From a virus, in the IMG/VR virus record IMGVR_UViG_3300028573_000014, positions 1 through 64,000 of that record: a stretch of DNA of 64,000 nucleotides; one strand, given 5' to 3'. Positions within the stretch are counted from its first letter, which is position 1; every line of letters begins with the position of its first letter. Shown piece by piece: positions 1,853-38,703 of the stretch. The notes beneath the pieces were generated by a model, which did not search any database, had not been told where the DNA came from, and saw only the letters and a program-made list of their open reading frames with translations. Position numbers and translations under genes: made by a program.

Positions 1853-1854
1853 GG

Positions 1855-1891
1855 GTGTTACAACCGTAACACACGTAATACGTCTGTAACA
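1855..1891. repeat. GTTAC/GTAAC palindromic boxes, candidate parC or operator
   Basis: GTGTTAC-aacc-GTAACAC plus CGTAATACG and TGTAACAC between parM and the parR-like gene. Confidence 0.5.
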
Positions 1892-1905
1892 CCGAGGAGC
1901 GTGGC

Positions 1906-23400: not shown

Positions 23401-23863
23401 GAGTCTCCAGCGGATCGGCATCCGCACCTTTCAGGAAAGCAACCAGTGCCTGCCGGAAACGTGGAAGGTCAGGGCAATCGAAGTTCAGGTAGATGCAGTC
23501 CTTATCAGGCGCATCCATGAACCGACCAATGCCGTTCAGAGTGCCACTGAGCGCAGGCCAGCCCTGTGCGAACTTAGTCAGTTCGGACTCCAGCGCTTCC
23601 TCATCTGGCATCCAACCGGGATCATCAGTGCTGCCCAGATAGGCCAGCGTGACATGCATTTCATCGACTGGCATCAGGCAGTCTTCTGGTAGTCCAGCGC
23701 CCTTCGCCAGTGCGATCAGATGTTGGGCAATAACAGGCGGAATCTTGAACGCGATCATGATTCCGTCCTGGTGGTCAGCATCCTTTGCCGGGATACCAAT
23801 GGTAGAACGGAGAACATAACCGCCTGCTGCCCCTGTCGCGCTGCTCATCGCTTTGGCCGTCAT
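20486..23863 (-). CDS. Head polyprotein: 2H phosphoesterase + accessory domains + prohead protease + scaffold + HK97-fold major capsid protein
   Basis: HVTLAY and HMTLAY 2H motifs; DLQDTFF, EHG, YSS, SLTRTPAEP protease motifs; acidic scaffold; GGYIL, AQWVGE, IDKAALLGTG, GGDW capsid motifs. Confidence 0.85.
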   Translation of the reverse strand: MTAKAMSSATGAAGGYVLRSTIGIPAKDADHQDGIMIAFKIPPVIAQHLIALAKGAGLPEDCLMPVDEMHVTLAYLGSTDDPGWMPDEEALESELTKFAQGWPALSGTLNGIGRFMDAPDKDCIYLNFDCPDLPRFRQALVAFLKGADADPLETHGYTPHMTLAYIDKEMPTPTIPLQPVPVTFDSLWESYGEAGDYTIPLSGGKGKKSLTVKIVKSKTDGKYRVLDMTSGVRSPEEGYATREEAIAHAHGEVPVATKSEPDEEVIEEISDAPAETETAVDEVAGEKAHHPRGSEDFNAYFYGEAPEEEAAGKDANPDTYGYVPDKDTPSSWKLPMPDARHVLLAAAAMGPNPPHGNRADIPDADKPTVRSRIRARAAELGLSKEDKAKVAAYLSGKMPSDLSEKDFSLWAKVYDQVMQETGDDVKATLAAQGACNRASMIGSKAVDGLPTSVEGWMMLFTDPENLDLQDTFFDDMTKTFADYYPNAPLWMEHGKNPDYGGDPIGQRTLVKVYPRGIWGEHALHTDHPLYVRTAKDAANGVFAYSSDSLSHYAQQGYDPADGHLGLWPLAGCSLTRTPAEPGLGPVLAAKSLELALKSVMQEREATDTLEEATKAEIREGKMDKEDEKEDQEEQKEDAAKDGLEEVNDANDDFDADEQPESTLHALAQMYGCEPEPTAVRGAMDNHIAAINTEGKAHPDLIKALGMPEDSKAEDVTSHLNNLYSAAMSSEKDDVPTATMSDPAPYNYSVLSRHLSSGGGSKSVGPYMTGSIAQKGINQNTGITKTPLAGVYADLKRIARMERPRFVIGAEKAMSSASGPNGGYILHQEISPVVLDPLRAKVVCYQLGAEHIDMQGTNVLTVPIMNSAPDAQWVGENQAVSDSQPGYRTVTLYPHGVSSLVKVPFNVEANMTPQAESQLRNQMAKSIALKIDKAALLGTGGALVSGGGMEIVGILNTPSAQTYDMGGNGRIPQFTDIGQAFGLLDDANVPYDDGSRRGIALHSQISRAFTLATDTLGNPLLRPAWRAAAEREIMAMPYAISNQIPTNVVEGTSTNSSYVFGGDWQYMYIGLSDQVEVRLDQTFAGNLQAGLLIYVYADVKIVYPQAFFVMKGVLPVSISGVTTGTN

Positions 23864-24405
23864 GATTGGAAAGCTCCCAACGCTTCGTCCAGCGCTTCAA
23901 GTAACATGTCTTCGACCAGATCTGCAATCTCATTCTCAGCGTCCTCGAAGTCGTTGCCCCAGCCTGTATTCTCATGGCCTGGAACAGCATCTGGACCGTA
24001 GACCGCCTGCGCGTAGTTGTCACCCTTCCAGTCCACAGCGTCATTCTCTATGGTCAGGAAAGTATCATTGGCACTGGTGTTTTCGGAGACGACCCAACTG
24101 CTTTCCAGTTTGTCGGTGCGGTCCCACTGTCCACCGTTCGGGTCCCAGTCCTGTCCAGGGATCTGCCCGGTTCTCTTCATCCAGAAATACCAGTTGCGAC
24201 TGGGAAGGGTTGCGAAATCAAAGGGATGCACAACATCACCAGGTGGAGGGGCAAAGCGGTCATTGACCACTTCCACCACTGCCTCATGGATGGGACCATG
24301 CACAGCTTCGTAGATTGGTTCGCGGATGGCAGCGACCTTCTGGCGAATGTCACGCAGAACATCTACAGCGACTGAGGGGTTGTACTCCACGCTGAAGAAA
24401 CTCAT
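23860..24405 (-). CDS. Virion morphogenesis (neck/tail completion-like) protein
   Basis: RTDKLESSW and NYAQAVYG resemble HK97 gp10-type motifs; lies between portal and capsid genes. Confidence 0.5.
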   Translation of the reverse strand: MSFFSVEYNPSVAVDVLRDIRQKVAAIREPIYEAVHGPIHEAVVEVVNDRFAPPPGDVVHPFDFATLPSRNWYFWMKRTGQIPGQDWDPNGGQWDRTDKLESSWVVSENTSANDTFLTIENDAVDWKGDNYAQAVYGPDAVPGHENTGWGNDFEDAENEIADLVEDMLLEALDEALGAFQS

Positions 24406-26762
24406 ATCGCCACCGCCTCAGTGTCAATGACCATATTGTGCTCATGGTCATGATGGTCATGTGACTTTGTGCCTGCGATGGGTACGCCTGCCAGTGAACC
24501 ATTGGCCGGTTCAGTTGTGTCATCGAGCGTACACAGACAGTTAATCCCCGTGCAGATACAACTATCGGAGCGGGGATAGATTCCATATTTGAGCCAGGTA
24601 CGCGCACGATGCACCTGCCCGTCAGCACCAGAACACGTTTCGCAGTGGTCTTTCGTGCCGCCAAGCGTAAATTTCTTCATGCCGTTCATCTTGCCGTACA
24701 TGTTGCCCAGTATCTTCATGCCCTGTAGACCCTTATTGATCCACAGTTCAATTCGACTAAGCATGGCATTACGGGCTGCTGAAAACTCAGGGGTCTCCCT
24801 GAGCGGAATCACATTGCGATACATGTCGTTTGCCAGCGCAGTCCAGTAACTGCGTTCCTGCTTTGTTTCCAGATCGAGCGCTGACTTTTCTTCATCGGTC
24901 ATCTCAGCGGGATCTGTACCCGCTTCCTGCATTCCGTTCTTAAACGCATTCAGGAAAGCCATCTCAATTTCGCTACGCCCTGCTACTCCGAACTGATTGC
25001 GATTCAAGTTTCCCTGGAAAGCATCGGTCATGAGTTCATATAGAGCAGTGCGATACTGTGCCTCGGTGTCCTCGTAGCCTTTAACCGCCTGCACCCGGAT
25101 GGCATTCCAGATTGATTCCGACGGTTCTTCACCGGAAAGCAGGAAACGACCAAACGCTACTGCATGGGCGGGTAGAGAGTCGCTCTTAAATGCATAATTT
25201 CTGCCCTTGCGCTCAATGAGAACACGCCAGTTCTTCAACTCTTTGTGCTGGGCATCGGGCAGGAACGGAATAGGATCGACACTTTTGCCTGTTGGTGCGG
25301 TAGGTGCAGTCGCTTCGGTAGATGCGCCCACTTCCGCAGCACGTGGAGTGCTTTCGCCTGTGCGGGATGGCTTATCGGGCTTAGCATTTTCTCCACCGGA
25401 AACCATGCCTGGATTACCAGGGGCCACACGCCAGTAGTTCTGCATTTCAGCGGATGGCACTGGAATGCCGCCGATAAGGTACAGACCTGTCAGGTTTTCG
25501 TCTACATTCAGCCCCAGTGTTTTCTGAGCATTTGCCAGATCCAGAACACCGTCCTTAAGCTGCTTGCTCACGGTATCCGTGCGGGATGAGATATCCTCGT
25601 CCAGGCCACGTACACGCTTGAAGGTGGGGACAATGCGCCATTCAGGATTGAGTGGCTTGGCAACCTGCTCAGTGAAGATGTCGGCATAGCGTTCTGACTG
25701 CGGGACCAGCCAGCTAATGAGCCATTCACGCTTCTGGTCGTAGAACTTTGTGCCCTGCGCACGCTGCGCCTGACGTGGCTCAATAAGTTCAAGTGGAACG
25801 CGCAGGATACGCAGACAGGCATCACGCGCCTGGTCGGTCAGGTTGGGCATTCCCAGCTTATCGAAGTCTTGCTGGAATTTCAGCATTTCCCAACGTGTGG
25901 GTAGAACAACCGTGCGACCTGCATTGGCTGCGCCCTGATACATCCGGCGCAGGTATTCACTCAGTTCGAGTTTCTGGTCAGGACCAGGGACATAACTCGA
26001 CCCGTCCGCAGGCTGAATAACAAAGGATGGCATCGCCATGTTGCGAAAGAACATCAATTGCGTGGCTGTGATCTCTGTCTCGGTAGCAGCCTGCGCATAA
26101 GCGACCATCAGCGGACCCGTGCCGCCAAAGTCTTCAAAGAAGTCAATGTTATGGAAATAAACAGTGTCTTCCGGCGGCAACCAGTCCAGATCTGGTTCAA
26201 GCTCGCTGCCCCAGACCGGACGGATATGGAAACCGCCCAGACCGCGTGAAGTATCGGTCTCACGGCGGAAGAAGTTATTGTTAATCCACTGAAACCCGTC
26301 GAGAATGCCAGACTGAGTCTTCAACCGACGCAGCAACACTTCGCCATAGCAGCAGTAGGACGTTTCAGACCGCTCAATAATGCTCTGGAAGTTAGACTGG
26401 AATGCCGCCTGAATGCCCTGAGCGCGAGGGGTGAAGAATTTGGGATCTCCCTCTTCGAGCAGTTCTCCAGCGGCATTGGCGATCTTAAAGTCAACCTGGC
26501 GCAGCGACTCAGCGCGGAGTTCAATGGCAGAACGTGCTGTAACTGCTGTCCTGAACAAATGTGCGATCTCGCTGTAGGAGACCTGCGGACGTAGCAGTGC
26601 GACTTCCTGATTCAGGTAAGTCTTGATAGCGCTGCCGCTGTTTTCCATGACGTTGAAGGGCAGGTCATTCAGGTCCAGTTCAAAGCGATTCTTGCGAATC
26701 GTTTGCGTGATCTGCTTTGATCGATTCTTTTTGCCCTGGAAGTGTCGATTACGGTGACTCAT
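24402..26762 (-). CDS. Portal protein fused to MuF-like head morphogenesis domain
   Basis: YGEVL, GTGPL, FFRNMAMPS, NAGRTVVL, ILRVP portal motifs; C-terminal HCETC...CTGINCLC; ATGA overlap with terL. Confidence 0.85.
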   Translation of the reverse strand: MSHRNRHFQGKKNRSKQITQTIRKNRFELDLNDLPFNVMENSGSAIKTYLNQEVALLRPQVSYSEIAHLFRTAVTARSAIELRAESLRQVDFKIANAAGELLEEGDPKFFTPRAQGIQAAFQSNFQSIIERSETSYCCYGEVLLRRLKTQSGILDGFQWINNNFFRRETDTSRGLGGFHIRPVWGSELEPDLDWLPPEDTVYFHNIDFFEDFGGTGPLMVAYAQAATETEITATQLMFFRNMAMPSFVIQPADGSSYVPGPDQKLELSEYLRRMYQGAANAGRTVVLPTRWEMLKFQQDFDKLGMPNLTDQARDACLRILRVPLELIEPRQAQRAQGTKFYDQKREWLISWLVPQSERYADIFTEQVAKPLNPEWRIVPTFKRVRGLDEDISSRTDTVSKQLKDGVLDLANAQKTLGLNVDENLTGLYLIGGIPVPSAEMQNYWRVAPGNPGMVSGGENAKPDKPSRTGESTPRAAEVGASTEATAPTAPTGKSVDPIPFLPDAQHKELKNWRVLIERKGRNYAFKSDSLPAHAVAFGRFLLSGEEPSESIWNAIRVQAVKGYEDTEAQYRTALYELMTDAFQGNLNRNQFGVAGRSEIEMAFLNAFKNGMQEAGTDPAEMTDEEKSALDLETKQERSYWTALANDMYRNVIPLRETPEFSAARNAMLSRIELWINKGLQGMKILGNMYGKMNGMKKFTLGGTKDHCETCSGADGQVHRARTWLKYGIYPRSDSCICTGINCLCTLDDTTEPANGSLAGVPIAGTKSHDHHDHEHNMVIDTEAVAI

Positions 26763-28117
26763 AAGAATATGTACTCCGCAGTGGGCCATGCAACATCAAT
26801 GGGCGGAGGAGGCGGAAACTGGACATTTCCATAAAGCACATCAGCGGGGATAATGCCCTGCGAGGCGTGCGGGATATCGATAAGTTCCGGTGCCCACTTG
26901 GGAACACCGTAGGTTGCGCCATGATAGGCCAGCGCTAGAGACATCACCATATCGTCATTCGAGTCACGGGGACCGGAATAACGGAATGCGCCAGATGGCA
27001 GTCGCTCCATCTGGAATGCATGGAGTTCGTCCAGAAGAAGCTGACCTATCGGCTGACCGTCAATGGCTTCACCCTTGTGAAGAACCTGTAGCTGACGATT
27101 GTCGAAGGCGGCAGCCAGTGCCTCAATGATGAGCGCCTTACTGCTACCACTGGTAGTGAAGGGCATAATGGGCAAGCCAGTGTCCATGAGACTTTCCATG
27201 AACGCCAGGTTGGTATTCTGCTCGACAATGATGCCTGCTGCGTGGAAAAGATTTGCCAGTGCAACAATGCGACCTTTTTGCAGCTTGTAGTCCACATGGT
27301 TGGCCCGGTCAATATAACAAACCGACATCAACGTTACGTCGATGACGGTGAACACGGAAAAGTCATTGGTCTTGGCAAGGTCAACGCCGATGACGTAGGT
27401 ATGACCGGCCTTTGGCTGAGCCTGAACAAAGCCCTGCGCCATCTCTTCCAGATTGCGGAACACAGATCCTGCATCCGAAATGAACTCGGCCAGGTATTCC
27501 TGCGAGAAAATGTTGACGGGCGTAGTTTTACGTGCATCTTCAATTTCACTTGCAGGCAGGAACGGATTGTCGGAAGAAGGCTTGTGCCAGCTCTCCCAGT
27601 CGGGAAAAGCGTCGTTTTTGCCCAGTCGATACAGATTCCAGAACCAGTTGTAACCCTTTGGCGTTGAGGCAAACAGGGCACGACCCTGCGTGGTCATGAG
27701 CATGGGTCGGATAACTTCTTGCCAGGTGTCACCAGAGGGAACAACCGCAGCCTCGTCAATGAGCACGAGATCGTATTCGCGTCCACGAGGACCATCTGGG
27801 TTGTCCAGTGACCACATTTCCACGACTGCACCGTTGATGGTCTCAATACGGTGTTCGTCTTCCTTCTTTTCCTTCGTGATGGGCGCAAGCATGTTCTTGA
27901 CAATGCGCCACATGTCTGCCAGCATCTTGTAGGTCGGGCACATGTAGGCAATGCGCTTGGCCTCGGACACTGCTCGAAGTATTTCAGCACGAAGGGTAAC
28001 GGTCTTGCCCCATCGTCGACCACAGTCCAGAACACGGAACCGGGCAGGCGACTCATAGACTTCTATCTGTCCAGGATGAAGGGCGAGACCCAGATAGACA
28101 TTAATCCTGTTGTCCAT
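26759..28117 (-). CDS. terL: Terminase large subunit
   Basis: GRRWGKT Walker A, LIDEAA Walker B, STPKG, IGVDLA and NDDMVMSLALA nuclease motifs. Confidence 0.95.
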   Translation of the reverse strand: MDNRINVYLGLALHPGQIEVYESPARFRVLDCGRRWGKTVTLRAEILRAVSEAKRIAYMCPTYKMLADMWRIVKNMLAPITKEKKEDEHRIETINGAVVEMWSLDNPDGPRGREYDLVLIDEAAVVPSGDTWQEVIRPMLMTTQGRALFASTPKGYNWFWNLYRLGKNDAFPDWESWHKPSSDNPFLPASEIEDARKTTPVNIFSQEYLAEFISDAGSVFRNLEEMAQGFVQAQPKAGHTYVIGVDLAKTNDFSVFTVIDVTLMSVCYIDRANHVDYKLQKGRIVALANLFHAAGIIVEQNTNLAFMESLMDTGLPIMPFTTSGSSKALIIEALAAAFDNRQLQVLHKGEAIDGQPIGQLLLDELHAFQMERLPSGAFRYSGPRDSNDDMVMSLALAYHGATYGVPKWAPELIDIPHASQGIIPADVLYGNVQFPPPPPIDVAWPTAEYIFL

Positions 28118-28598
28118 CGACCACCTGTGCATCTATGACTCTGGTGGTCTCTTCATCCTTCTTTTGCGGAGCGCCCAGAACGAAATTGATAACAATGTCG
28201 CCCCGTCCAGATTCCTGCTTCGGGCTGTACTTCTCTGGCCGGTTGCCTTTCAGGTGAATTTCAATCGCCTTGATTTTGGCTCCGGCAGGCGTATCCGGGG
28301 CAAGCGCCATGTCAACCAGCGCATCTTCGACATCATCTACAATGGACTCTTGAACATCATCCATAAGCTGGCGGAAGGCTGGATCAGTCTCACGCCAACG
28401 ATAGACCATAAACTTTTGTAGATCCGCTGCTTTACAGGCTTTACCGAGGTGCGCCCGAAACTCGGAATAGGTCCGCAGAAAGCGTTCTTTCTGGTCCTGA
28501 ATCTCAGCAAGCCGTTCTTCTTCCACATTGAATGCAGGAGAAAACGACTTGATATCTCGGTCTGGAGTTTGATCTAAGCGCTGCTGCCCGTCAGTCAC
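28101..28598 (-). CDS. terS: Terminase small subunit
   Basis: HTH (KACKAADL..VYRWRETDPAF), LKGNRPEKY, upstream of terL. Confidence 0.85.
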   Translation of the reverse strand: MTDGQQRLDQTPDRDIKSFSPAFNVEEERLAEIQDQKERFLRTYSEFRAHLGKACKAADLQKFMVYRWRETDPAFRQLMDDVQESIVDDVEDALVDMALAPDTPAGAKIKAIEIHLKGNRPEKYSPKQESGRGDIVINFVLGAPQKKDEETTRVIDAQVVDGQQD

Positions 28599-28620: not shown

Positions 28621-28650
28621 AAGCATCTAATGGCAACAGATTAGATGCTT
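28621..28650. promoter_or_regulatory. 11-bp inverted repeat upstream of terS
   Basis: AAGCATCTAAT-ggcaacag-ATTAGATGCTT. Confidence 0.6.
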
Positions 28651-28694: not shown

Positions 28695-29048
28695 CTACGA
28701 GGTGTGTATTACCTCAGAAAATCTACTCTCTCTTATGACGGGATGGCTATATTGAGAATTGACCAGAAAGAATTCACCGTTCTTTTTAACGGCACGGCAT
28801 TCCCAGGGACGGGTCAGTTGCATTGCATAGTTGAACGCATTGCCCGTCGAGATGCCCATGATTTTCCCGATCTTCTCGTAGGTCGGTGTATTGCCACCGT
28901 GATCTGCGGCATAGAAAGCAATAATGAGTTCGACCCGATCTCGCTGCAATAAATCCTTGTTTGCAATGAGTTCAATGAGTTCATCGGGCGGGATCCACTC
29001 GTCCAGGTCAGGCTGGAAGGGTTTGCGTTCTGTAGATTTATTTGACAT
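28695..29048 (-). CDS. LexA-type winged-HTH protein
   Basis: PTYEKIGKIMGISTGNAF. Confidence 0.65.
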   Translation of the reverse strand: MSNKSTERKPFQPDLDEWIPPDELIELIANKDLLQRDRVELIIAFYAADHGGNTPTYEKIGKIMGISTGNAFNYAMQLTRPWECRAVKKNGEFFLVNSQYSHPVIRESRFSEVIHTS

Positions 29049-29277
29049 CGGTCAATGCCTTTAATCGCTCAGATATATCCCACGAGGACTCACTTAGCCA
29101 GTACTTCTTGTCTTTGCAGGATACTTTTCCATATGATACCAGTTCCCTGACATACATGTGGGCGTTCCCTGCGCTTGTGGCAGCCCCTTCCGCTATTTCG
29201 CGCATCGTGGGAAACTGTCCACCATGAGAAAGTCCATAGGTTGCAATAAAGAGTTCTATTTGATCGCGTTTTACCAT
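29038..29277 (-). CDS. LexA-type winged-HTH protein (paralogue of neighbour)
   Basis: PTMREIAEGAATSAGNAHMYVRELVSYG. Confidence 0.7.
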   Translation of the reverse strand: MVKRDQIELFIATYGLSHGGQFPTMREIAEGAATSAGNAHMYVRELVSYGKVSCKDKKYWLSESSWDISERLKALTDVK

Positions 29278-29813
29278 GATTTTGACTTTACCATAAAAGG
29301 TCCACGGACGTTAGGACTAAAGCGTGCAGCAACAGTCAGCGCCAGTTCGATCCGATGATCAACATCCCTCATTTTCTCAGTAGACCCAAGCGATCCGAGT
29401 GCATAATCTTCGCCAGATCCACAGGCAGCATAGTTCTCTGCGTAATGATTGACCTGAAAATCACTACAGACGCAGTAGATAGTTCCATGATAGCCTACCA
29501 GAAATTCTCCGCTGCTTTCCAGATTGTTTTCGATCTTGGAGATACCATGTTCTTTGAACAAACTGCGAACGTTTTCTGCAAAAACTTTGACCATGTAGGC
29601 ATCGTCAGAAACACCGTCTTTCTGCCTGGGAACAGTCAGATGATGCTGCAAGATTTGCCCCATCCTGAATGACCAGGTATAGCCAATGAGGAAGTCTCCG
29701 ACCTCGAAAACCTTTGGCAGCAGGCTGGTTCGCATTGTATTGCCTACGCTGGATGAACTATCAGCGCCTATGTATACCGTGTCGTTTTTAGCGATGCCAA
29801 CAATGCAGGTCAT
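29271..29813 (-). CDS. HslV/proteasome-beta-like Ntn protease
   Basis: MTCIVG N-terminal Thr, GADS, PKVF, ACGSGEDYALG. Confidence 0.8.
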   Translation of the reverse strand: MTCIVGIAKNDTVYIGADSSSSVGNTMRTSLLPKVFEVGDFLIGYTWSFRMGQILQHHLTVPRQKDGVSDDAYMVKVFAENVRSLFKEHGISKIENNLESSGEFLVGYHGTIYCVCSDFQVNHYAENYAACGSGEDYALGSLGSTEKMRDVDHRIELALTVAARFSPNVRGPFMVKSKSW

Positions 29814-30217
29814 TTGTATCCTTTGCTACTATCGTTTATGCTGCTAATTTCACTGGATATTGTGGCAATATAGGCGCGGCCATCCTTAAATTTCACAATT
29901 ACTTTTGTGCCCGGATATTTACCAGCCGCAACCCCCAATGGATCGTCAATGGAAATAGAGATAAAGGAGCCTTTTCGCATAAACCGTACAAAGGTTTTCC
30001 CTTCGGAATCTGGGTCGTAAATATAGCCTTCCGCAGTCCCTAATATGCCAACCTCACCTTCCTCAGTGTCTGGCGTATCGGATGGCGGACTCCACCAGGG
30101 CAAATAGAGATCAGGCCACATTTCGCGCTGATCGAAGTACCGATCCCGCTTCGACTGCCACTTGTGCTGCCGTGCATCTCGCCCCAGTCGGCGGATGGCT
30201 TCCAGTAAGGTTGTCAT
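29810..30217 (-). CDS. Stand-alone paralogue of the tail-fibre N-terminal domain
   Basis: GILGTAEGYIYDP..EGKTFVRF...GTKVIVKFKDGRAYI vs fibre [13 protein letters not shown]...SGRVWVRF...[16 protein letters not shown]. Confidence 0.55.
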   Translation of the reverse strand: MTTLLEAIRRLGRDARQHKWQSKRDRYFDQREMWPDLYLPWWSPPSDTPDTEEGEVGILGTAEGYIYDPDSEGKTFVRFMRKGSFISISIDDPLGVAAGKYPGTKVIVKFKDGRAYIATISSEISSINDSSKGYK

Positions 30218-30822
30218 GATATCCTGTAAGGACTTTCCATGACAGGCGGATCATCCCCGGTAAGTTCAACAAACTCTCCGAGCATATCCGCGCGAAACCC
30301 GACCTCGGAGGAGGACTCCACCACACTGCGAAGATCCTCGGCATTAAGGAACGGGTTGGTTTTGATGGGGAACATGAAGAACGCTGCATCGAGAAAGTGC
30401 TTCTTGCTCTGGGCGAACTTCTTCAACTCGATAAACAGGTCGGTCTGGTGCTTATGGCTTGGAACAGGCGTACCGACTGCCAGCAGTTTCCCGTCTGGGA
30501 TTAAGCACGGCAAAAGTTCATCGAGCAAATAAGGAGTCATGGTCGCAGGCTCATTGATGATGACGAGATCGAACTGATGTCCCCTGTATTTATCCTCGTT
30601 TTTCTCCATGTAGACAATTTTTCTGCCGCTGCTTACCACCATTGTTGTTTTGAAGAATTTGTTCATCCCGTGATTTGGACCAACAAAGAGGATTTCACGA
30701 GCATCGGATATCTCTATGCAAAATCTGCATAGTGCATCTTTGCCCCAGCGCCGACTGGTAGACACAACACGGTAGCGATCTCTGGAGTCCAGGACTAATT
30801 GCTGTCCAGTATGCGGGATCAT
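30214..30822 (-). CDS. Stand-alone degenerate terminase ATPase domain
   Basis: HTGQ, RYRVVSTSRRWGKD, RGHQFDLVIINEPA, VGTP, TNPFL, MLGEFV colinear with the N-half of TerL. Confidence 0.85.
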   Translation of the reverse strand: MIPHTGQQLVLDSRDRYRVVSTSRRWGKDALCRFCIEISDAREILFVGPNHGMNKFFKTTMVVSSGRKIVYMEKNEDKYRGHQFDLVIINEPATMTPYLLDELLPCLIPDGKLLAVGTPVPSHKHQTDLFIELKKFAQSKKHFLDAAFFMFPIKTNPFLNAEDLRSVVESSSEVGFRADMLGEFVELTGDDPPVMESPYRIS

Positions 30823-31085
30823 TCTGTTGCCGCCTTGATCTCCTGATCGATCTGATCTGCCAGTGAACGCAATTCATTGGCGCGACTTTTGACCTGCATC
30901 CACGAAGCAATGGAATTAAGCAATGGTTCGTAATTGAAGTCGGGCAAAATCGCTGGTCCGTTAGGCAAAAAACGGGGAAGTGAATTCCCGCTGGCAACAT
31001 CATTTAGTAGATGGAAAGCCCGAATTTCCTCCTCGGTGCAGGTTACAATAATCTCACCCTGAGACGTATAGCCAATTTGTTTCAT
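30819..31085 (-). CDS. Hypothetical protein
   Basis: ATGA-coupled in operon; contains an MCP-like peptide. Confidence 0.6.
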   Translation of the reverse strand: MKQIGYTSQGEIIVTCTEEEIRAFHLLNDVASGNSLPRFLPNGPAILPDFNYEPLLNSIASWMQVKSRANELRSLADQIDQEIKAATE

Positions 31086-32209
31086 TTCGTTTTCACTCCT
31101 TCAATAGCCTTCCGTAGTTCTTCAGCAACTCTGCCCACCTCTACCGATCTCATCTTCAAGTGCATGGGGAGCGACAATAGACGGTTACTGGCCTCGGTTG
31201 CTCTGGGCAAGTATCCGTGATACATCGGATACTGCGTGTTATCGACATAATGTACACCCGTTCCAATGCCAGCCAACTTCAGCGCATTGACCACTTCATT
31301 GCGGTTATCTACCAGTACCTGATACAGATGGCGAGACGGGACGCAATCTGGGGACATGGGCACGGTCTCGCAGACACCTGCTAACAGCTTGTCATACAGG
31401 GCTGCGATGCTCCGTCGATGCTGATTGTCATCGTCCAGATATTGCAGGGCAACCAGTCCCATTGCTGCCATGATACTGTTGCCGTTGTATTTCCAGCCAA
31501 CATTCTCCACGTCATATTCCCATGAGTATCCGGTGCCGGAAGACCTTGCATAGGTATCCTTGTCGATGCCCATCCAGGACAATTTGCGCGACTGAGCATC
31601 CATTTCAGGATCTGCCCAACAGATCATGCCAGAATCGCCCGTCGGTAGATTTTTCACTGCCTGAAAGCTGAACACGGAAACATCAGCGGTTGCACCAACA
31701 TGATCGCCATCTAGCCAGCGCGTTCCTGCCATGTGAGCAGCGTCCAGAATGAGCTTTAACCCATGAGATTGGCATATCTCCCAGATTTTGGCGTACTGTC
31801 CTACATTGCCTCCAAGTCCTACGAAAACTACGGCTCTGGTGCGCGGGGTGATTTGCTCCTCTACACTGTCGGGGTCCAGACACATGTACTGGTCAACATC
31901 TGCGAATACAGGTGTTAATCGTTCATACAAAATAGGATGATTCGTGCTGACGAAGGTGATCGGCGTGGTGATCACTTCATCACCATCGGACCATCCATAA
32001 CTGAGTTCGTGCATTGCCAAATGAAGTCCTGCTGTCGCACTATTCAAGAAGCACGCATTTGGCAGTCCAGTGTATTTCTTCCACGCTTCTTCAAACTCAA
32101 CAGTCTTGTAACCGATGCCCGTCCAGCCCTTTTCGAGACACTGGCGAATCTCGGCAAGCACTTCTTCGGTGCGAAAGACGGGGGTGAAAAGTTGGATGGA
32201 ATCGCTCAT
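31082..32209 (-). CDS. DegT/DnrJ/EryC1/StrS sugar aminotransferase
   Basis: NSATAGLH, TFVST, DAAH, FSFQAVKNL (PLP Lys), LSLPMH. Confidence 0.95.
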   Translation of the reverse strand: MSDSIQLFTPVFRTEEVLAEIRQCLEKGWTGIGYKTVEFEEAWKKYTGLPNACFLNSATAGLHLAMHELSYGWSDGDEVITTPITFVSTNHPILYERLTPVFADVDQYMCLDPDSVEEQITPRTRAVVFVGLGGNVGQYAKIWEICQSHGLKLILDAAHMAGTRWLDGDHVGATADVSVFSFQAVKNLPTGDSGMICWADPEMDAQSRKLSWMGIDKDTYARSSGTGYSWEYDVENVGWKYNGNSIMAAMGLVALQYLDDDNQHRRSIAALYDKLLAGVCETVPMSPDCVPSRHLYQVLVDNRNEVVNALKLAGIGTGVHYVDNTQYPMYHGYLPRATEASNRLLSLPMHLKMRSVEVGRVAEELRKAIEGVKTK

Positions 32210-32463
32210 TTGATCACCTGCGAATTACCACTGCCACCAACAATATTCTGTGTCGTACTGATCGGCGGACCATCGTAGCAGTCAATGATGGTCGATTGTC
32301 GTCCTGTACCATGCCAGAACGCCCACTTAATGAAGTGTCGATGTTCCATCCAGAACTCGATCAATTCTTCAGCAGCCTCTTTGCCATCGTTGCCATGCGG
32401 ATACATTTCACTGGCGTTATCGACCAGTTCCTGAAATTTTTTGCGAAGTTGTGCAGGAGTCAT
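32206..32463 (-). CDS. Hypothetical protein
   Basis: GAGGA SD, coupled to the aminotransferase; MCP-like peptide. Confidence 0.6.
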   Translation of the reverse strand: MTPAQLRKKFQELVDNASEMYPHGNDGKEAAEELIEFWMEHRHFIKWAFWHGTGRQSTIIDCYDGPPISTTQNIVGGSGNSQVIK

Positions 32464-32505
32464 TTCGTTGTTTTTCCTCTCATTTTGCGGTAAAATACGA
32501 ATTAC

Positions 32506-32557
32506 TGTGGTCTAGGGTAGCTCCCGAAAAGGTGGTTTCGTCACCGCCCTGACCCAT
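32506..32557 (+). ncRNA. Structured RNA leader upstream of the HNH gene
   Basis: GGTC...GACC closing stem enclosing GGG-TAGCT-CCC and GGTGG-TTTCG-TCACC hairpins, just after -10 TAAAAT (32491-32496). Confidence 0.5.
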
Positions 32558-32594
32558 ATACATCTTGACGAACTAGCACAAGACGAGGTGCTAA

Positions 32595-33386
32595 GTGATC
32601 TACCAGCCGTCTCCAATTGGTCGGATATGCAAAAAGTGCAACGAATGGAAACCGCGAGCAAGGCTCGTAAAGGAAAAACGCTGTCTCTGGGGCGTACATG
32701 CCCTTTGCCTTGACTGTGTTGCTGCGAGAATAAGAGAAGACAGACAGAAAAATCCTCTCAAATACCGTATTTATGAGCGGAAATTTAGAAAAGAACATCC
32801 AGATCGGTATCGCACATATCAAAGAAGCCATAACGAACAGAGAAACGCAGGAAACCGTCGCCGCCGCGCTCTCAATCCACAACATGCTAGAGACTATCAC
32901 AATAGATGGCGAAAGAAGAATCGTGAACTTGTCAGACGGTATGAACAAGCGACTAATAGCCGTCATCCTGATCGCGTAAAGCAAAAATCGCAGGTGAGAA
33001 GATCCCGAAAGCATAACCTTCCCTCCGAATTCACTGAAAAACATTGGTTGGAATGTCTTCAATACTTCAACAATAGATGCGCATACTGCGGTAGACCACA
33101 AGGACTGTGGCATTCTCTTTCGCAAGATCACTTTATCCCAGTTAAAAAAGAGGGCGGTTATATTCCAGGCAACATCGTACCAGCATGTCATGGTATAGAT
33201 GGTTGCAATGAGAGCAAACACGACAAGGATGCCGTTGATTGGCTGACTGCAAAGTACGGAAAGCGAACAAGCAAATTGATCTTGCAAAGAATATTTGCCT
33301 ATTTTCAATGGGTCGAGCATTCTAGCGCGTTACCCTCAACTGAAAATCCCGCGCAGGTTCATGCCACACACCAGGGACAATCGTAA
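32595..33386 (+). CDS. HNH endonuclease (antisense insertion)
   Basis: CKKC..CLDC, basic helical linker, CAYCG..QDHFIP..GNIVPAC..CNESK. Confidence 0.9.
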   Translation: MIYQPSPIGRICKKCNEWKPRARLVKEKRCLWGVHALCLDCVAARIREDRQKNPLKYRIYERKFRKEHPDRYRTYQRSHNEQRNAGNRRRRALNPQHARDYHNRWRKKNRELVRRYEQATNSRHPDRVKQKSQVRRSRKHNLPSEFTEKHWLECLQYFNNRCAYCGRPQGLWHSLSQDHFIPVKKEGGYIPGNIVPACHGIDGCNESKHDKDAVDWLTAKYGKRTSKLILQRIFAYFQWVEHSSALPSTENPAQVHATHQGQS

Positions 33387-33840
33387 TGTTTTCACGATTG
33401 AACCCGGCATCCACTACCATATCTGACAGTGACTGCGGCGTATAACCCCAGCGGTGTCCCATTAACGGTTCATCGGGCGAACTATTTCCGAAGACTCCCC
33501 ACCATCCGAACTGCTCAACCGATCTGCCATCTGGTGGTTGAATAACACCTGCGATCACTTTGCAGCAGTATGCCAGATCGGGCTGCTCAAGGATCAGAAG
33601 ACCTTCAGGCAGCAAAACATCATAGCATTGCTTGAGCACAATCAAAGCGTCCTGTTTGAAGAAATGCTCGATAATGTGCGATGCTACGACTTCTGTGAAT
33701 TTTTGTGACATCACTTCGTCGGGTAACGGCGGTAGCATAGCGCAAATATCAGGTTCGTTGGCAGGATTCCCATCAATGGTTACATATTCCTGCCAATGCC
33801 ATTCTCCGCTGCCTATGAGCAACTTCGTCTTATTTATCAC
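33322..33840 (-). CDS. SAM-dependent methyltransferase-like protein
   Basis: LLIGSG, ASHIIEHF, LLPEGLL..PD, HRWGY. Confidence 0.75.
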   Translation of the reverse strand: MINKTKLLIGSGEWHWQEYVTIDGNPANEPDICAMLPPLPDEVMSQKFTEVVASHIIEHFFKQDALIVLKQCYDVLLPEGLLILEQPDLAYCCKVIAGVIQPPDGRSVEQFGWWGVFGNSSPDEPLMGHRWGYTPQSLSDMVVDAGFNRENITIVPGVWHEPARDFQLRVTR

Positions 33841-34084
33841 GGTCTTCCTTTCCCTTCACTAATTCTTTCCAGATTACAGGTTGTGCTGTCAAATCTTCAC
33901 AGATATAAAAATGTCCGCTGCCGTCCTGCACCATCACCCTGTTACTGGGAGGTGATATCTTGAAAATAGCCAACTCTGCAAACGATGGCATTGTCATCGG
34001 CAAGATAATCGTTCTCAGTGGCTGATATATCATGCAGCCCCACCGATAGTCTCCTGCGACATAGTATGGTTTCATTGATCTCAT
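33830..34084 (-). CDS. Hypothetical protein with tail-protein-like segment
   Basis: ATGA-coupled; NRVMVQDGSGHFYICEDLTAQPVIW resembles blades in 9509..13003. Confidence 0.5.
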   Translation of the reverse strand: MRSMKPYYVAGDYRWGCMIYQPLRTIILPMTMPSFAELAIFKISPPSNRVMVQDGSGHFYICEDLTAQPVIWKELVKGKEDRDK

Positions 34085-34980
34085 GGCTTGAAACCCGCAA
34101 GCACCTTTATCCACTTGAGCGCCACCTTGTCCGCTGTGAATTGCTGTGCAGCGACCCATCCCAACTCAGCATCCGACTCGCGCAGGGTTTTGTCGTTTGC
34201 GCTGGACAGAGCTGCGCACCATTGCTCAGTAGTCTCTGCCATCCAGAACAATCCTATCTCCTGATAAGAAGGGATAGGCGTTCCTACCACTGGTAGACCG
34301 AGGCCATAGGCTTTCAGCAGTCGGTTGGCACTCTTGGTCATCACCCAGTTGACCGACCATTGGGGACTGCCAAACACGAACGGGAAGATCGCCATATCAT
34401 GCTCGACCATCAATTGGTCTACTGTATCAGCGGACCACTGCTGCGCATTCCAGCCTTCTTTAGGCAGTTGATCCGTCTGCTCGGAGAAATGCGGATTGTT
34501 GAGATCCGTAATAATGGTCAGATTAATGCCCAGTGTACGGCAAGCACGGGCTGCATAGCATAGATGATACATGTTCTGAGTATTGCCGACCCAGACAGCG
34601 CTATTCAAGTTGTCTGCGTGTACTTTCTTGCGAGGGCTGGTCGGCTCAGTATCCAGACAATCTGGAATAACGATTGCCCCAGGGAAATGAGCGAGCTTGG
34701 ACTCAGTGTCCACTGTGATCTGATCCACCTCGGCAGGGATAGGCGTGGAAATAAGATCGTCAATGTCGAAAATGATACGCTTCCCCGCAGCCTTGAACAT
34801 CTTCATTGAGCCATCCTGCGGCCAGACCTTCTGATACACCACAACGTCACAATCCGATGAATTGTAACTGTTGAAGGTAACGGTATGCCCCATCGCTCGG
34901 AGCGCTGTAGCGACCTTCCAGACACGGAGTCGACTACTGGCAAAGTCTGTGCTGCCTGCGGGGAAATAGTTAATGCGCAT
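34081..34980 (-). CDS. Glycosyltransferase (GT-B)
   Basis: ASSRLR, IFDIDD, WVG, KSANRL...GLPVVGTPIPSY. Confidence 0.85.
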   Translation of the reverse strand: MRINYFPAGSTDFASSRLRVWKVATALRAMGHTVTFNSYNSSDCDVVVYQKVWPQDGSMKMFKAAGKRIIFDIDDLISTPIPAEVDQITVDTESKLAHFPGAIVIPDCLDTEPTSPRKKVHADNLNSAVWVGNTQNMYHLCYAARACRTLGINLTIITDLNNPHFSEQTDQLPKEGWNAQQWSADTVDQLMVEHDMAIFPFVFGSPQWSVNWVMTKSANRLLKAYGLGLPVVGTPIPSYQEIGLFWMAETTEQWCAALSSANDKTLRESDAELGWVAAQQFTADKVALKWIKVLAGFKP

Positions 34981-35353
34981 TGTTGTCTCTCAATTCACTG
35001 AACAACTGGTCAATGGCACCAGCTTCGATATAAACGCTAGCTTTTACTGACTCTGCCATTCTCCGATAAGCATCCTCGTAAGTATCTGCCCACATACAAT
35101 CAATGAAGTCTGGCTGCTTACCTTCCTTCCAGATGTCCCATGCGATGCGACGTTCAATGCCCGATTCTGCTATCTCTAGCGGAGGTGCTGTATATGTATG
35201 CAATGTCCACCAGTTAACTTCAAGCGGTTTAATTTGCGCCACATTGTAAGGGAAAGCGATGCCGCGATAATCGAAGTCGCCGCGGTTGGTTCCCACATGG
35301 AATGTCCACTGCTTTGAAATAAGAAGGATGGCAGGAGCCAGTTTGATCTTCAT
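34970..35353 (-). CDS. Hypothetical protein
   Basis: Overlap-coupled ORF in operon. Confidence 0.55.
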   Translation of the reverse strand: MKIKLAPAILLISKQWTFHVGTNRGDFDYRGIAFPYNVAQIKPLEVNWWTLHTYTAPPLEIAESGIERRIAWDIWKEGKQPDFIDCMWADTYEDAYRRMAESVKASVYIEAGAIDQLFSELRDNNAH

Positions 35354-35847
35354 CGTCTGCCTACAAACAATCTATCCGACATGGGATCATAAGCGGCAAA
35401 AATATCGAGATAGTCATATGGATTAGAGGGGTAGCCATGATAATTACCAACCATATAACGTTCAAATCGGATAGTGCGAACACTAACACTGGGACTAACA
35501 CCGAAGTTGAGATCGATCATGCCAATATGTTCGATGCTCATTGGTCGCCAGTTGGCGGGCCGGTCCGCCGGATGGTAGCGATTATCGACCAGCCACTTGT
35601 GAAACCGCTTGACGCAGCGCAAATAGAACGCCTTCCAGCCTTTTGCGGGATACCAGTTATTCCGATAAGGACGCATCATTGAATCGTCCTGTACAGGGAT
35701 CTGTATCTCACGGGGAGAATTGTACACAAGTTCAATGGTCGTCTTGTCATTCAACTGTGGAATTTTGCTGCGCATTTCGCGCCACAGATAAAAGGCAAGC
35801 GGACCATCTCCGATAACTGACTGCAAAGGATGAACGGGCGCTCTCAT
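35350..35847 (-). CDS. Hypothetical protein
   Basis: Overlap-coupled ORF in operon. Confidence 0.55.
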   Translation of the reverse strand: MRAPVHPLQSVIGDGPLAFYLWREMRSKIPQLNDKTTIELVYNSPREIQIPVQDDSMMRPYRNNWYPAKGWKAFYLRCVKRFHKWLVDNRYHPADRPANWRPMSIEHIGMIDLNFGVSPSVSVRTIRFERYMVGNYHGYPSNPYDYLDIFAAYDPMSDRLFVGRR

Positions 35848-36809
35848 GCCTTTACCCCCACATGCTCCAGTATATCCATAACACGCTGACGACTTCGTTC
35901 AAAGGTGAATTGTTCAACCATTCGATATTGTTCAGCAACTGCATTCCCATAATAACTGTTGCTGCTGAGCAATTCAGCCATCACGCTAGCCTGCGCAGGG
36001 TCAAAGGGGTCAATATGTAGTCCTGGCGCATCATTGCACCACTCAGAACTGATCACAGGTGTACCGACCATCGCGCACAGAACCTGCTGCCGACCATAGC
36101 TATGGCGCGTGTAAATGTCCACGCACATCTGCGCCTTAGCCGTAATCGCCACAAAATAAGGCCATGCGACGTGCCCCAGAAACTCAGCCTTGAGGCCAGC
36201 GATACGCGCATAGTCCGAGGTCCAGTCCCGCTGCGCTGCATACAGCACCCGACAGCCTGTTTTGCGCTGGATGGCAGCCACTGCCGCAACGTTATTGGCA
36301 GTATTGTTGTCAATGTCGATGCTGTGGTCGAGCGTGAGAATGTAGTCTTCTTTGGGCAAGTCACGATAAGGCAAGAAGAATTCTGTGTCACCGATAGGGG
36401 ATGGGAGATAAAACGTTGGTTTGTTCAATAGCTCGCCATACACATTGCAATCTGCATGTGTACGCCCCCCAATGGCATCTGCCATGCTCATCTGGTGCAG
36501 CATAAACATCCAGTCTGGACGAGTCAACACAATATCCACGCAGGCATCCGGGCAGGCAATACAGTAACAGGTCGGGTTGACCGCTTTTATCTGCTCAATG
36601 TGACGCGAGTCTGTGGTGTGGAATAAGTTAACTATAACGATCCTTGCTTTCCGCACCGCATCTGGCATTGTCCCTGGTTGCCGTGTATCCCAGCGTTGCC
36701 ACGGCAAATCCAACACGGTAGACCAATTAGAGACGCTTACGGTAGGCGGACCACCTGGTCCGCTTGTAACGAACTCGCCCCACACAAGCGCAAGATCACT
36801 CAGTTGCAT
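35844..36809 (-). CDS. Divergent glycosyltransferase (GT4-like)
   Basis: EFLGHV, HSYGRQQVLCAMVGTPVISS, DPFDP, FTFER. Confidence 0.75.
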   Translation of the reverse strand: MQLSDLALVWGEFVTSGPGGPPTVSVSNWSTVLDLPWQRWDTRQPGTMPDAVRKARIVIVNLFHTTDSRHIEQIKAVNPTCYCIACPDACVDIVLTRPDWMFMLHQMSMADAIGGRTHADCNVYGELLNKPTFYLPSPIGDTEFFLPYRDLPKEDYILTLDHSIDIDNNTANNVAAVAAIQRKTGCRVLYAAQRDWTSDYARIAGLKAEFLGHVAWPYFVAITAKAQMCVDIYTRHSYGRQQVLCAMVGTPVISSEWCNDAPGLHIDPFDPAQASVMAELLSSNSYYGNAVAEQYRMVEQFTFERSRQRVMDILEHVGVKA

Positions 36810-37092
36810 TGTTAACCACCTTGTTCATTTCTTCCCGCACAATAAGGCGGATCATTCTGGTCAAGTCAACCGACTTCTCCAGCGGGACATAATTTGCCGC
36901 GTAATCAGTGGAGATGCCCAGTGCCACCACGCCCGGAATGCTTGCCCTCATTCTTTGCAAAACAGCATTGATAAGTTCCCCGTCTCGGCCTGCAACAATC
37001 CAGACATCATCACCCAGATTGAACATTTTCATCTTTCCCAGGTCGAAGATTCCAGGTTGAGTAGCATCAATTGGCTCAGGTAGATCACTCAT
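36796..37092 (-). CDS. Hypothetical protein
   Basis: Overlap-coupled ORF in operon. Confidence 0.55.
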   Translation of the reverse strand: MSDLPEPIDATQPGIFDLGKMKMFNLGDDVWIVAGRDGELINAVLQRMRASIPGVVALGISTDYAANYVPLEKSVDLTRMIRLIVREEMNKVVNNATE

Positions 37093-37351
37093 CCAACATT
37101 CCTTTCACAACACCCTCAATGTATTTCTTTAAAACTTCATTGTCATTAAGATTAAGCACTATTTCCAGCGAGAAGGGCAAGACTACCATTCGCACACCGA
37201 TAGGAGCCAGCCTTTCCTGGTACACACTCACAACATGATCGAGCTTTTCATGATATAGTGGCGATGCACCGAGCGGTAGTCCAAACAGTATCAGCGTCGG
37301 GCTAACAACGATAACCGAAAGCAGAATGTCAGGCGTAGCCATATTATGCAA
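37085..37351 (-). CDS. Small protein resembling an internal portal segment
   Basis: HNMATPDILL...VRMVVLPFSLEI vs portal RNMAMPSFVI...GRTVVLPTRWEM. Confidence 0.5.
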   Translation of the reverse strand: MHNMATPDILLSVIVVSPTLILFGLPLGASPLYHEKLDHVVSVYQERLAPIGVRMVVLPFSLEIVLNLNDNEVLKKYIEGVVKGMLDE

Positions 37352-37892
37352 ACCTTATCGATAGGCCACCGTGCCGCGTGCCATGCAAAGCCAGTGCGGT
37401 AGCCACTACTGTTTCAGTGTTTCTGACGGGCAGAAAATCTCCCTGTCCGCCAGCGCGGTATTCATAGCCAGATAGCTCATTGATAAGCCCTTCGTCAGGA
37501 ACAATGCGCAATCGCCCCATATTTAATTCCAGCGCCAGATTATTGAGCATGTCGGCTCTGCTTGCCCTGGTCATACGTAGTGGGTACACGGGTAATCCCT
37601 CCGATCGCAACGCTTCGATGTTAGGACCGCCAATGCTGGCCGCCTCAACATAGATAAGCTGCGGTTTCCATATTTTGTGCAACGCGGATACTCGATCTCG
37701 CTGCACTGCATAACCCTCACCTATGGTTCGGTCCAGCGCGACCAGTTGATGCGTTGTAGCATCCATAATGGCTACGCCCATACGGTCCATATGGTTTCCC
37801 CAGTCCAGCCCGAAGACTATCCGATGACCAACAACAGGCTTATCCTGCGGCTCAACTCTGGCATATCGTTCTGGATTGGGGAAGAGCCTCAT
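37344..37892 (-). CDS. Stand-alone terminase nuclease (RNase H-like) domain
   Basis: FGLDWG..D, IYVEAASIG, GLPV, LINELSGY, TETVVATALALHG colinear with the C-half of TerL. Confidence 0.85.
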   Translation of the reverse strand: MRLFPNPERYARVEPQDKPVVGHRIVFGLDWGNHMDRMGVAIMDATTHQLVALDRTIGEGYAVQRDRVSALHKIWKPQLIYVEAASIGGPNIEALRSEGLPVYPLRMTRASRADMLNNLALELNMGRLRIVPDEGLINELSGYEYRAGGQGDFLPVRNTETVVATALALHGTRHGGLSIRFA

Positions 37893-38518
37893 CTCTTTGT
37901 TGCCTTTCGTGCTGGCGCTTTGGCCTTTGCCTTTGTGGTAATGGCTCCAGTACCTTCGCCTATCGTAGGCGTTCCACCGGACACTTCAAACTCATAGTGG
38001 GCAGGAGAAGACTTTGGCTCATCAATCTCACCCCACACTCGTACAGCACTGGCGCAGACATCGTAGCCAGATTCCACGGTGCGAATATCATCGAGTACGC
38101 CCGTGTTCGTCATGAGTTCACGCAGGGCTTCTTCGGACATTCGCCACAGGTCCGGTCCAGATTTTACGGGCGGTTTGGTGAAGGAGGGGGTAACAATTAC
38201 CAGTAACCCCTGCGGATGCATTACGCGGACCAATTCTTTCATCCATGACACGAGATCCAGCACTGCGTAAGCCACGCTGCCTGAGATAACAATGTCATAG
38301 TGACCGCTTTCGATGGGATAGTGGTAGGGATTATCTGCCACGATATCCACATTGGAGTTGGCTTCCAGGTCCAGCCCCGTGTAATGCCAGCCAAGCGACA
38401 CGATGTACTCCCTGTAGGACCCGTTTACGTTGAAAGCGCCAACGTCCAGCACTGAAGCGCCAGTCTCAGGGTAGCGTTGCAAAGCGTCAGCCATAAGGTC
38501 CAGACTTCCCTGGTGCAT
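37889..38518 (-). CDS. Class I SAM-dependent methyltransferase
   Basis: VLDVGAFNVNGSYR, YTGLDL, YDIVISG, ELVRVMHPQG, DLWR. Confidence 0.85.
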   Translation of the reverse strand: MHQGSLDLMADALQRYPETGASVLDVGAFNVNGSYREYIVSLGWHYTGLDLEANSNVDIVADNPYHYPIESGHYDIVISGSVAYAVLDLVSWMKELVRVMHPQGLLVIVTPSFTKPPVKSGPDLWRMSEEALRELMTNTGVLDDIRTVESGYDVCASAVRVWGEIDEPKSSPAHYEFEVSGGTPTIGEGTGAITTKAKAKAPARKATKR

Positions 38519-38526
38519 AATTCTCC

Positions 38527-38703
38527 CTATCCTGTAATATGAGCGGTTAAAATGACGATCCCGAAGAAAAACAGTGCAGCGGCAAGGCTAGCCCAGTCGG
38601 GCAGTTTCATCTTGCCACCAATCCAGCGAACCAATCCGCCTACGAGGGCAGCAACAAGGCACAACACAATAACAACCGCGGCGACATGCGTATCGACAGT
38701 CAT
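38527..38703 (-). CDS. Small two-TM membrane protein
   Basis: 58-aa hydrophobic ORF read manually, coupled to the GT gene. Confidence 0.55.
   Translation of the reverse strand: MTVDTHVAAVVIVLCLVAALVGGLVRWIGGKMKLPDWASLAAALFFFGIVILTAHITG

Follow-up and report, generated by a model that had tools for sequence, protein, structure and literature searches.

Terminase is the best-studied of the viral DNA motors and is treated as a single two-domain enzyme, encoded once per phage. The packaging ATPase of phage phi29, gp16, is an additional-strand catalytic glutamate (ASCE) ATPase that lacks a nuclease domain, carries canonical Walker motifs and serves as the sole motor of a protein-primed phage, for which no DNA cutting is needed. 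The stretch of DNA analysed here, referred to as the window, comprises the first 64 kb (64,000 nucleotides) of a 79,953-bp IMG/VR record from an uncultured soil phage (IMGVR_UViG_3300028573_000014, hereafter G000), and encodes a full-length large terminase subunit (TerL) as well as, 2 kb away, a separate protein of 202 amino acids (aa), P0001, that corresponds to the TerL ATPase domain without a nuclease domain. P0001 is probably a real, folded and functional stand-alone copy of this domain and, as judged from sequence, is a member of an undescribed family of ATPase-only paralogues within the TerL superfamily. Like gp16, it is a viral packaging-type ASCE ATPase that has no nuclease domain; unlike gp16, it coexists with a complete TerL, and gp16 structures are absent from the listed Foldseek matches of P0001, which is not detectably closer to gp16.

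The P0001 open reading frame (ORF) is intact, and residues 4-189 of its product align with residues 19-222 of the phage's own TerL in one colinear alignment (BLASTP, 25% identity, E 5e-14) that runs from H(T/P)GQ to LGEFVEL/LAEFISD. The protein matches the PHROGs family phrog_2, "terminase large subunit", at 3.4e-11, and its match to Pfam Terminase_6N is sub-threshold. An AlphaFold2 (AF2) model built from a 62-sequence alignment reached a mean predicted local distance difference test (pLDDT) score of 90.8 and a predicted template modelling (pTM) score of 0.87, and the top matches of the model in the Protein Data Bank, found with Foldseek, are all TerL ATPase domains, namely those of P74-26, T4 gp17, D6E, Sf6 and HK97 (template modelling (TM) score ~0.7, probability 1.0). 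As in tailed-phage TerL ATPase domains (Terminase_6N/PHROG 2), the fold is that of an ASCE P-loop ATPase and the motifs follow the same order, with a Q motif, an RRWGK P-loop, a Walker B strand with its catalytic Glu, a GTP/STP coupling motif and a lid subdomain. The chain ends 18 residues past the GEF motif that closes the ATPase domain, leaving no room for a nuclease domain. These results bear out an earlier note on this DNA, made from the sequence alone, which had described an ATPase-only TerL paralogue colinear with TerL.

The same note had reported that both Walker motifs are altered, and the DNA does read SRRWGKD for Walker A and NE at the end of Walker B, where the TerL of the same phage has GRRWGKT and LVLIDE. 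The replacement of Thr by Asp at the position following the Walker A lysine (K+1) is a real deviation; the Ser at the first position is not, since the homologue P0003 has Ser in an otherwise canonical site. The Walker A motif of T4 gp17 is SRQLGKT. The catalytic Glu, the Q motif, the P-loop Arg and Lys and the coupling motif are invariant or nearly so. Across the 62 aligned sequences, Q7 of the adenine-binding Q motif and T118 of the S/G-T-P coupling motif are invariant and P119 is conserved in 86-98%, and P0001 retains the "RG" arginine upstream of Walker B that is present in 94% of full TerLs. The gene overlaps both of its neighbours by 4-nt ATGA sequences, which indicates an expressed operon gene, and the overlap with the 135-aa ORF suggests translational coupling.

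Set against tailed-phage TerLs, P0001 departs in four respects. Its Walker A keeps the Lys but has Asp in place of the Ser/Thr ligand of Mg, its Walker B replaces the Asp of the hhhhDE pattern with Asn while keeping the Glu, no RNase H-like nuclease domain is present in the same polypeptide, and the packaging-enzyme position beside the small terminase subunit (TerS) and the portal protein is filled by the canonical TerL. In addition, several residues conserved in TerL are relaxed in the family to which P0001 belongs. For the first four reasons P0001 is not filed as the TerL of this phage.

Relatives of P0001 are rare. A set of 5.8 billion clusters holds only P0001 itself and P0002 (70% identity), and an exhaustive HMMER search of 1.84 billion representatives added P0003 (41% identity) and 68 weaker hits, most of them full TerLs and some of them short proteins; P0072 (38% identity) was found by profile search. 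These three homologues share the length and the ends of P0001. In a tree of 108 ATPase domains, drawn from 14 short proteins, 88 full-length TerLs and six short probable fragments, the 14 short proteins (173-254 aa) are set apart from the other 94 by a single branch (Shimodaira-Hasegawa-like approximate likelihood ratio test, SH-aLRT, 80). All 14 end 1-22 residues past the GEF motif, at the boundary between the ATPase and nuclease domains, which identifies them as true ATPase-only proteins rather than truncations. The six probable fragments (P0040, P0042, P0052, P0053, P0061 and P0070), which nest among full TerLs and have canonical motifs, were set aside.

Five residues, Q7, R24, G27, the catalytic E91 and T118, are invariant in all 14 members, and K28, R25, P119, N156 and P157 are nearly so, which argues against random decay; the earlier note had named such decay among homologues as one of the outcomes that would overturn its reading, and it is not seen. 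TerL-conserved D77, W100 and P105 are relaxed. The family is small, old and fast-evolving. Its closest relatives in sequence are the Mu gp28-like (GRRWGK) TerLs, and a recent duplication of the phage's own TerL was rejected, as the two proteins are only 25% identical and the paralogue lies far from its cognate TerL in the tree. No description of an ATPase-only TerL paralogue family was found in the literature, and cultured phages in GenBank have no detectable copy, a tblastn search with P0001 returning only full TerLs at 24% identity. Scans of viral contigs with A1, P0003, P0029 and P0035, and of metagenome and genome contigs with A4, returned nothing new, and A8, scanned against metagenome contigs, brought back full-length TerLs together with P0016 and P0021, both already known, and nothing else. 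The ESM Atlas offered nothing beyond generic Terminase_6N clusters, 213-241 aa in length and possibly fragmentary.

The Ser/Thr at K+1 of P-loop NTPases is a ligand of Mg and forms a hydrogen bond with the Walker B Asp. Kozlova et al. (2022, PMC9599734) describe both residues as strictly conserved and each as essential in its own right. The K+1 residue and the Walker B acidic pair were tabulated in 303 sequences, comprising 289 distinct full-length TerLs and the 14 short-family members. A canonical GK[S/T] with an acidic Walker B is found in 283 of the full TerLs and in five short-family members, one of which, P0044, has no Walker A lysine (GAT). The exceptions among full TerLs are GKD/NE in P0057 and L052, GKN/NE in L071 and L062, GKD/TE in P0068 and GKM/DE in L144 (Table 1). 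Those in the short family are GKD/NE in P0001, P0002, P0029 and P0035, GKE/NE in P0015 and P0025, and, with an acidic Walker B, GKD/DE in P0072, GKN/DE in P0016 and GKY/DE in P0021. Walker B carries Asn or Thr in 11 of the 303 sequences, and in every one of these the K+1 residue is Asp, Glu or Asn and never Ser or Thr (Fisher's exact test with kinship ignored, 3e-17 for all sequences and 4e-10 for full TerLs alone); the Walker B change corresponds to at least seven independent events on the tree. The Walker A Thr-to-Asp and Walker B Asp-to-Asn changes are therefore read, from this sequence comparison, as one coupled substitution. The survey of homologues for GKD/NE that had been proposed in the earlier note argues against the pseudo-ATPase drawn there, as the homologues show no random decay and the Walker B change comes with the K+1 change in 11 of 11 cases; the GKD/NE pair itself is present in 4 of the 14 family members. 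In favour of the note, K+1 deviations are enriched in the short family (9/14). The nearest relatives of P0001 read GKD/INE (P0002), GKD/IDE (P0072) and GKS/IDE (P0003), the last two suggesting that the Walker A change preceded the Walker B change.

Five of the 11 Walker B variants are full-length TerLs (L052, L071, L062, P0057 and P0068). These belong to the same subfamily and share the paired replacement of P0001, and, unlike the stand-alone extra copy, they retain a nuclease domain and occupy the usual TerL place as the sole terminase. L071 is the sole TerL match in G004, a 54.5-kb, 100%-complete phage. Phages of the L071 and L052 type must package their DNA with that enzyme, so the paired substitution would not preclude a working motor. 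A carboxylate or amide at K+1 facing a Walker B amide could keep the hydrogen-bonded pair and move the charge to the Walker A side. Such GKD/NE and GKN/NE terminases, in phages with no other TerL, offer a natural test of the proton-relay and Mg-coordination mechanisms that have been proposed.

Searching the G000 record with its TerL gave a third match, a 182-aa protein (37344-37892) that aligns with TerL residues 224-409 (26% identity, E 9e-13). Its AF2 model (pLDDT 92) has a confident RNase H-like fold with the G20c/P74-26 TerL nuclease as top Foldseek match (TM 0.8) and RuvC among the further structural matches. The first catalytic Asp (GLDW) and the central Glu (YVEAAS) are retained, and the HDD motif reads NTE. 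G000 thus has, besides a full TerL, a separate gene for each TerL half. In the direction of transcription the nuclease half comes first, 6.5 kb ahead of the ATPase half, which reverses the TerL domain order, and the same inverted order in a second genome (G002) excludes one gene split by an insertion. A wider operon of many protein fragments was likewise rejected, as BLASTP finds only the two TerL halves; the other small ORFs of the region have no BLASTP similarity to structural proteins.

Co-occurrence was read for three of the 14 family members, in genomes G000, G001 and G002, and in all three a full TerL of the same subfamily accompanies the paralogue. G001 (70,494 bp, terminal repeats, 100% complete, GC content 38.3%) has the gene order TerS-like gene, paralogue P0015, two small ORFs and TerL. 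In G002 (75,929 bp, 100% complete, GC content 56.6%), TerS and TerL at 0.8-2.7 kb are followed by a nuclease-only paralogue at 6747-7337, a formyltransferase and a glycosyltransferase family 4 (GT4) gene, the ATPase-only P0016 at ~10.8-11.5 kb, and then an MT-A70 methyltransferase, an HslV-like protein and DegT. The nuclease-only paralogue is therefore found in two of the three genomes (G000 and G002). Both have the nuclease half first, then the ATPase half and, after one intervening gene, the HslV-like gene; the halves share 37% and 24% identity between these genomes. At E <= 1e-5 in BLASTP, G000 and G001 have only TerL and the paralogue in common, and G000 and G002 have about eight proteins in common, including TerL, both halves, the HslV-like protein and DegT. 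The cognate TerLs of the three genomes show pairwise identities of 38-42% and belong to one TerL clade (support 98); the search did not impose this association, since it was the paralogue that led to G001 and G002. The TerL of G001 (L009:1513-2844) has YEK at the nuclease HDD position, an unusual first nuclease motif and the Walker A WGRRGGKS.

Homology, fold, family membership, synteny and motif coupling are direct results of this analysis, whereas nucleotide binding and hydrolysis, partners and role are inferred from them. P0001 may be best understood as an auxiliary subunit that depends on nucleotide and takes part in DNA packaging or in the processing of DNA ends, a reading to which we assign a probability of about 45%. 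The packaging-subunit role is favoured because genomes with very little else in common have inherited the paralogue together with one TerL subfamily and because it sits between TerS and TerL in G001. P0001 would act in trans with TerL, with the nuclease-only paralogue or with both, and would still bind Mg-ATP, with hydrolysis that is perhaps slow. Nucleotide binding is likely, and hydrolysis at a meaningful rate is close to an even prospect, tilted slightly to the negative. It is probably neither a dead enzyme, since the coupled pair also occurs in terminases that work, nor an autonomous motor. A complex prediction for P0001 and the nuclease half scored 0.00, which gives no verdict and counts neither way. 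Conserved stand-alone halves beside a complete TerL suggest an undescribed accessory layer of packaging, DNA processing or counter-defence.

Several observations weigh against this reading or against an active site of this kind. The single Walker B Asp-to-Asn change abolishes hydrolysis, and not binding, in many P-loop NTPases (PMC9599734), so that compensation within the coupled pair is argued from its natural occurrence only, and an independent-pairs test of the coupling, underpowered with 4-5 pairs, gave p ~0.25. The short family shows K+1 deviations about 30 times as often as full TerLs (9/14 versus 6/289; Fisher's exact test, 2e-10), and the "RG" arginine, which we take to be the trans-acting finger R139 of P74-26 TerL and thus a putative trans arginine finger, is present in six and missing in eight of the 14 members. 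These two features fit a relaxed need for turnover and may point to a family-wide shift away from fast motor chemistry. The tree that defines the family was built quickly and its branches are long. About 80 loci with related TerLs lack the paralogue, which is therefore dispensable for that TerL type and accessory; most of these contigs are short, with 3 kb or more of sequence upstream of TerL in 42 and 9 kb or more in 16. G001 has no detectable nuclease-only partner and no detectable HslV-like gene. Lastly, the paralogue row in G000 lies among sugar- and DNA-modification genes and is cut off from TerS by a terminator-like hairpin.

The earlier note had drawn from the two substitutions a pseudo-ATPase, suited to binding rather than to a motor role. 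Such a protein would bind ATP or a partner without hydrolysis as a static adaptor or regulator, for instance one that caps or spaces TerL, or that holds on to DNA or to the portal. P0001 does resemble the pseudo-ATPase paralogues of P-loop machines in being an Mg-site-altered paralogue encoded near the active enzyme, with both canonical Mg-site residues changed, and a protein that binds and fails to hydrolyse is the classical outcome of a Walker B Asp-to-Asn mutation (PMC9599734). The family-wide K+1 deviations, which extend to Asn, Tyr and a lost Lys, and the frequent lack of the "RG" arginine, W100, P105 and D77 point the same way. The motifs nevertheless do not support it: unlike in pseudo-ATPase paralogues, the two substitutions form a coupled pair, found again in enzymes whose activity the phage needs, sole and canonically placed full-length TerLs among them. 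The catalytic Glu, needless in a pure binder, is kept in 14 of 14 members alongside the nearly invariant motifs described above, and P0001 itself keeps the "RG" arginine. A static pseudo-ATPase is accordingly a somewhat unlikely account, at odds of roughly one in four.

The accessory-subunit reading also has to be set against an anti-defence function, in which the free TerL halves would mimic terminase and either shield TerL from the fold-recognising sensors Avs1-3 or poison the terminases of rival phages or satellites. Each half is a gene of its own, in an accessory region with many modification genes (DegT, GT4, methyltransferases, HNH), the 2H phosphoesterase domain of the capsid polyprotein, with its weak Acb1 match, implies that the phage invests in counter-defence, the long branches of the family fit an arms race, and Avs families sense TerL by its fold (PMC13581612). 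KpAvs2, however, is predicted to bind the TerL ATPase domain (PMC11564622), and a free ATPase domain would then be expected to trigger the sensor rather than to blind it. A decoy of shape needs no invariant catalytic residues, the region holds no fragment genes beyond the two TerL halves, no published TerL decoy was found in the literature, and PADLOC returned no match for P0001, the nuclease half or eight neighbouring proteins. We regard this explanation as improbable; if true, parts of an enzyme central to virion assembly would here have given rise to a new class of counter-defence.

Slightly less credible still is a split second terminase, whose halves would form a two-subunit enzyme for a DNA task other than head filling, such as breaking down host DNA, resolving replication or recombination intermediates, or maturing ends. 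The co-occurrence of the separate halves in the same inverted order in G000 and G002, and the RNase H-like fold, RuvC similarity and two retained acidic residues of the nuclease half, are in keeping with such an enzyme. The third nuclease motif is degenerate, however, reading NTE in G000 and EID in G002, the two genes are non-adjacent, and G001 encodes the ATPase half with no detectable nuclease half. That P0001 is a functionless, decaying remnant of an old or foreign TerL gene, as its 25% identity to the resident TerL, its altered motifs and its rarity might suggest, is very improbable given the intact reading frame, the length and ends kept in homologues of 70%, 41% and 38% identity, the invariant motif residues, the confident predicted fold, the ATGA overlaps with both neighbours and its retention in three phages with almost nothing else in common.

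The G000 record is linear, with a CheckV completeness estimate of 51% and a GC content of 50.6%. Public runs containing its sequence are rhizosphere metagenomes, with matching contigs all from 2019, and none of the listed runs is an RNA run; the matching contigs show zero differences in the P0001 ORF and thus yield no polymorphism data. A megablast search with 12 kb against GenBank phages gave no match. The coordinates of the features are collected in Table 1.

Table 1. Features of the G000 window, in transcription order of the minus strand, and full-length TerLs of other loci with variant Walker motifs.
Feature	Sequence	Position	Strand	Remarks
GT4 glycosyltransferase	G000	38700-40103	minus	First in transcription order of the region
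S-adenosylmethionine (SAM) methyltransferase	G000	37889-38518	minus	Second in transcription order
Nuclease-only TerL paralogue, 182 aa	G000	37344-37892	minus	Third in transcription order; followed by several ORFs without known family
Second methyltransferase	G000	33322-33840	minus	
HNH / endonuclease VII-like gene	G000	32595-33386	plus	Sole plus-strand gene of a long minus-strand block
DegT-type aminotransferase	G000	31082-32209	minus	
88-aa ORF, unknown family	G000	30819..31085	minus	Stop overlaps P0001 ATG (ATGA); no family match
ATPase-only TerL paralogue P0001, 202 aa	G000	30214..30822	minus	Full TerL ATPase domain with lid, no nuclease domain
P0001 Walker A, SRRWGKD, residues 23-29	G000	30736..30756	minus	Read from DNA; K+1 is Asp, not Ser/Thr
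P0001 Walker B, LVIINE, residues 86-91	G000	30550..30567	minus	Read from DNA; Asp to Asn, catalytic Glu91 kept
135-aa ORF, unknown family	G000	29810..30217	minus	ATG overlaps P0001 stop (ATGA); no family match
HslV-like Ntn-hydrolase, 180 aa	G000	29271..29813	minus	Starts MTCIVG; phrog_1040 1.4e-24; Pfam Proteasome 3e-5
Small ORFs, 117 and 79 aa, tandem-paralogue-like	G000	28695-29048, 29038-29277	minus	Common motif HGG..PT..EI......GNA..Y; no family hit
Terminator-like hairpin	G000	28621..28650	minus	11-bp stem, T-rich tail; consensus match only
Small terminase subunit TerS, 165 aa	G000	28101..28598	minus	phrog_4044 1.3e-13; Pfam Sf6_terminase sub-threshold
Full-length TerL, 457 aa	G000	26759..28132	minus	Pfam Terminase_6N 1.3e-14; phrog_2 4e-43
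Portal protein, 795 aa	G000	24402..26789	minus	Pfam Phage_portal 2.3e-18
Capsid polyprotein, 1125 aa	G000	20486-23863	minus	Pfam Phage_capsid 1e-27, HK97-type major capsid domain
Variant TerL	L052	9816-11021		GKD/INE; then portal (Pfam 3e-54), S78 prohead protease, major capsid protein
Variant TerL	L071 (G004)	9941-11236		GKN/INE; then MuF-like head protein
Variant TerL	L062	~750-1900		GKN/VNE
Variant TerL	P0057			GKD/INE
Variant TerL	P0068			GKD/ITE
Variant TerL	L144	9971-11194		GKM with normal DE

The packaging row of the window, TerS-TerL-portal, spans 24402-28598, and its TerL has canonical motifs (GRRWGKT, LIDE and an HDD-type nuclease site). P0001 is encoded five genes upstream of TerS, in a region transcribed on the minus strand that contains one plus-strand HNH gene. 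The hairpin occupies the sole sizeable intergenic gap between the accessory row and TerS, suggesting separate transcription units, and a promoter and terminator scan gave site counts not above the shuffled expectation. Both split-terminase loci sit amid sugar- or DNA-modification genes, comprising DegT, GT4 and the two SAM methyltransferases in G000 (31082-40103, minus strand) and the formyltransferase, GT4, MT-A70 and DegT in G002 (7373-14039), and these genes may have a role in virion or DNA glycosylation.

A 106-aa ORF outside the window (G000:C1:70552-70872, minus strand) has a weak match to a TerL C-terminal profile (E 1e-4, 15.9 bits) that may be due to chance. The 259-aa minus-strand ORF at 32541-33320, which is overlapped by the HNH gene, is probably not a real gene. 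The N-terminus of the capsid polyprotein comprises a 2H phosphoesterase/LigT-like domain (Pfam 2_5_RNA_ligase2 2e-12; Acb1 0.005). The 117- and 79-aa ORFs just upstream of TerS are possibly winged-helix DNA binders. The HslV-like protein would have an N-terminal Thr after removal of Met, and in G000 and G002 (12100-12662 in the latter) alike its gene is the second one downstream of the paralogue, the two proteins sharing 31% identity.

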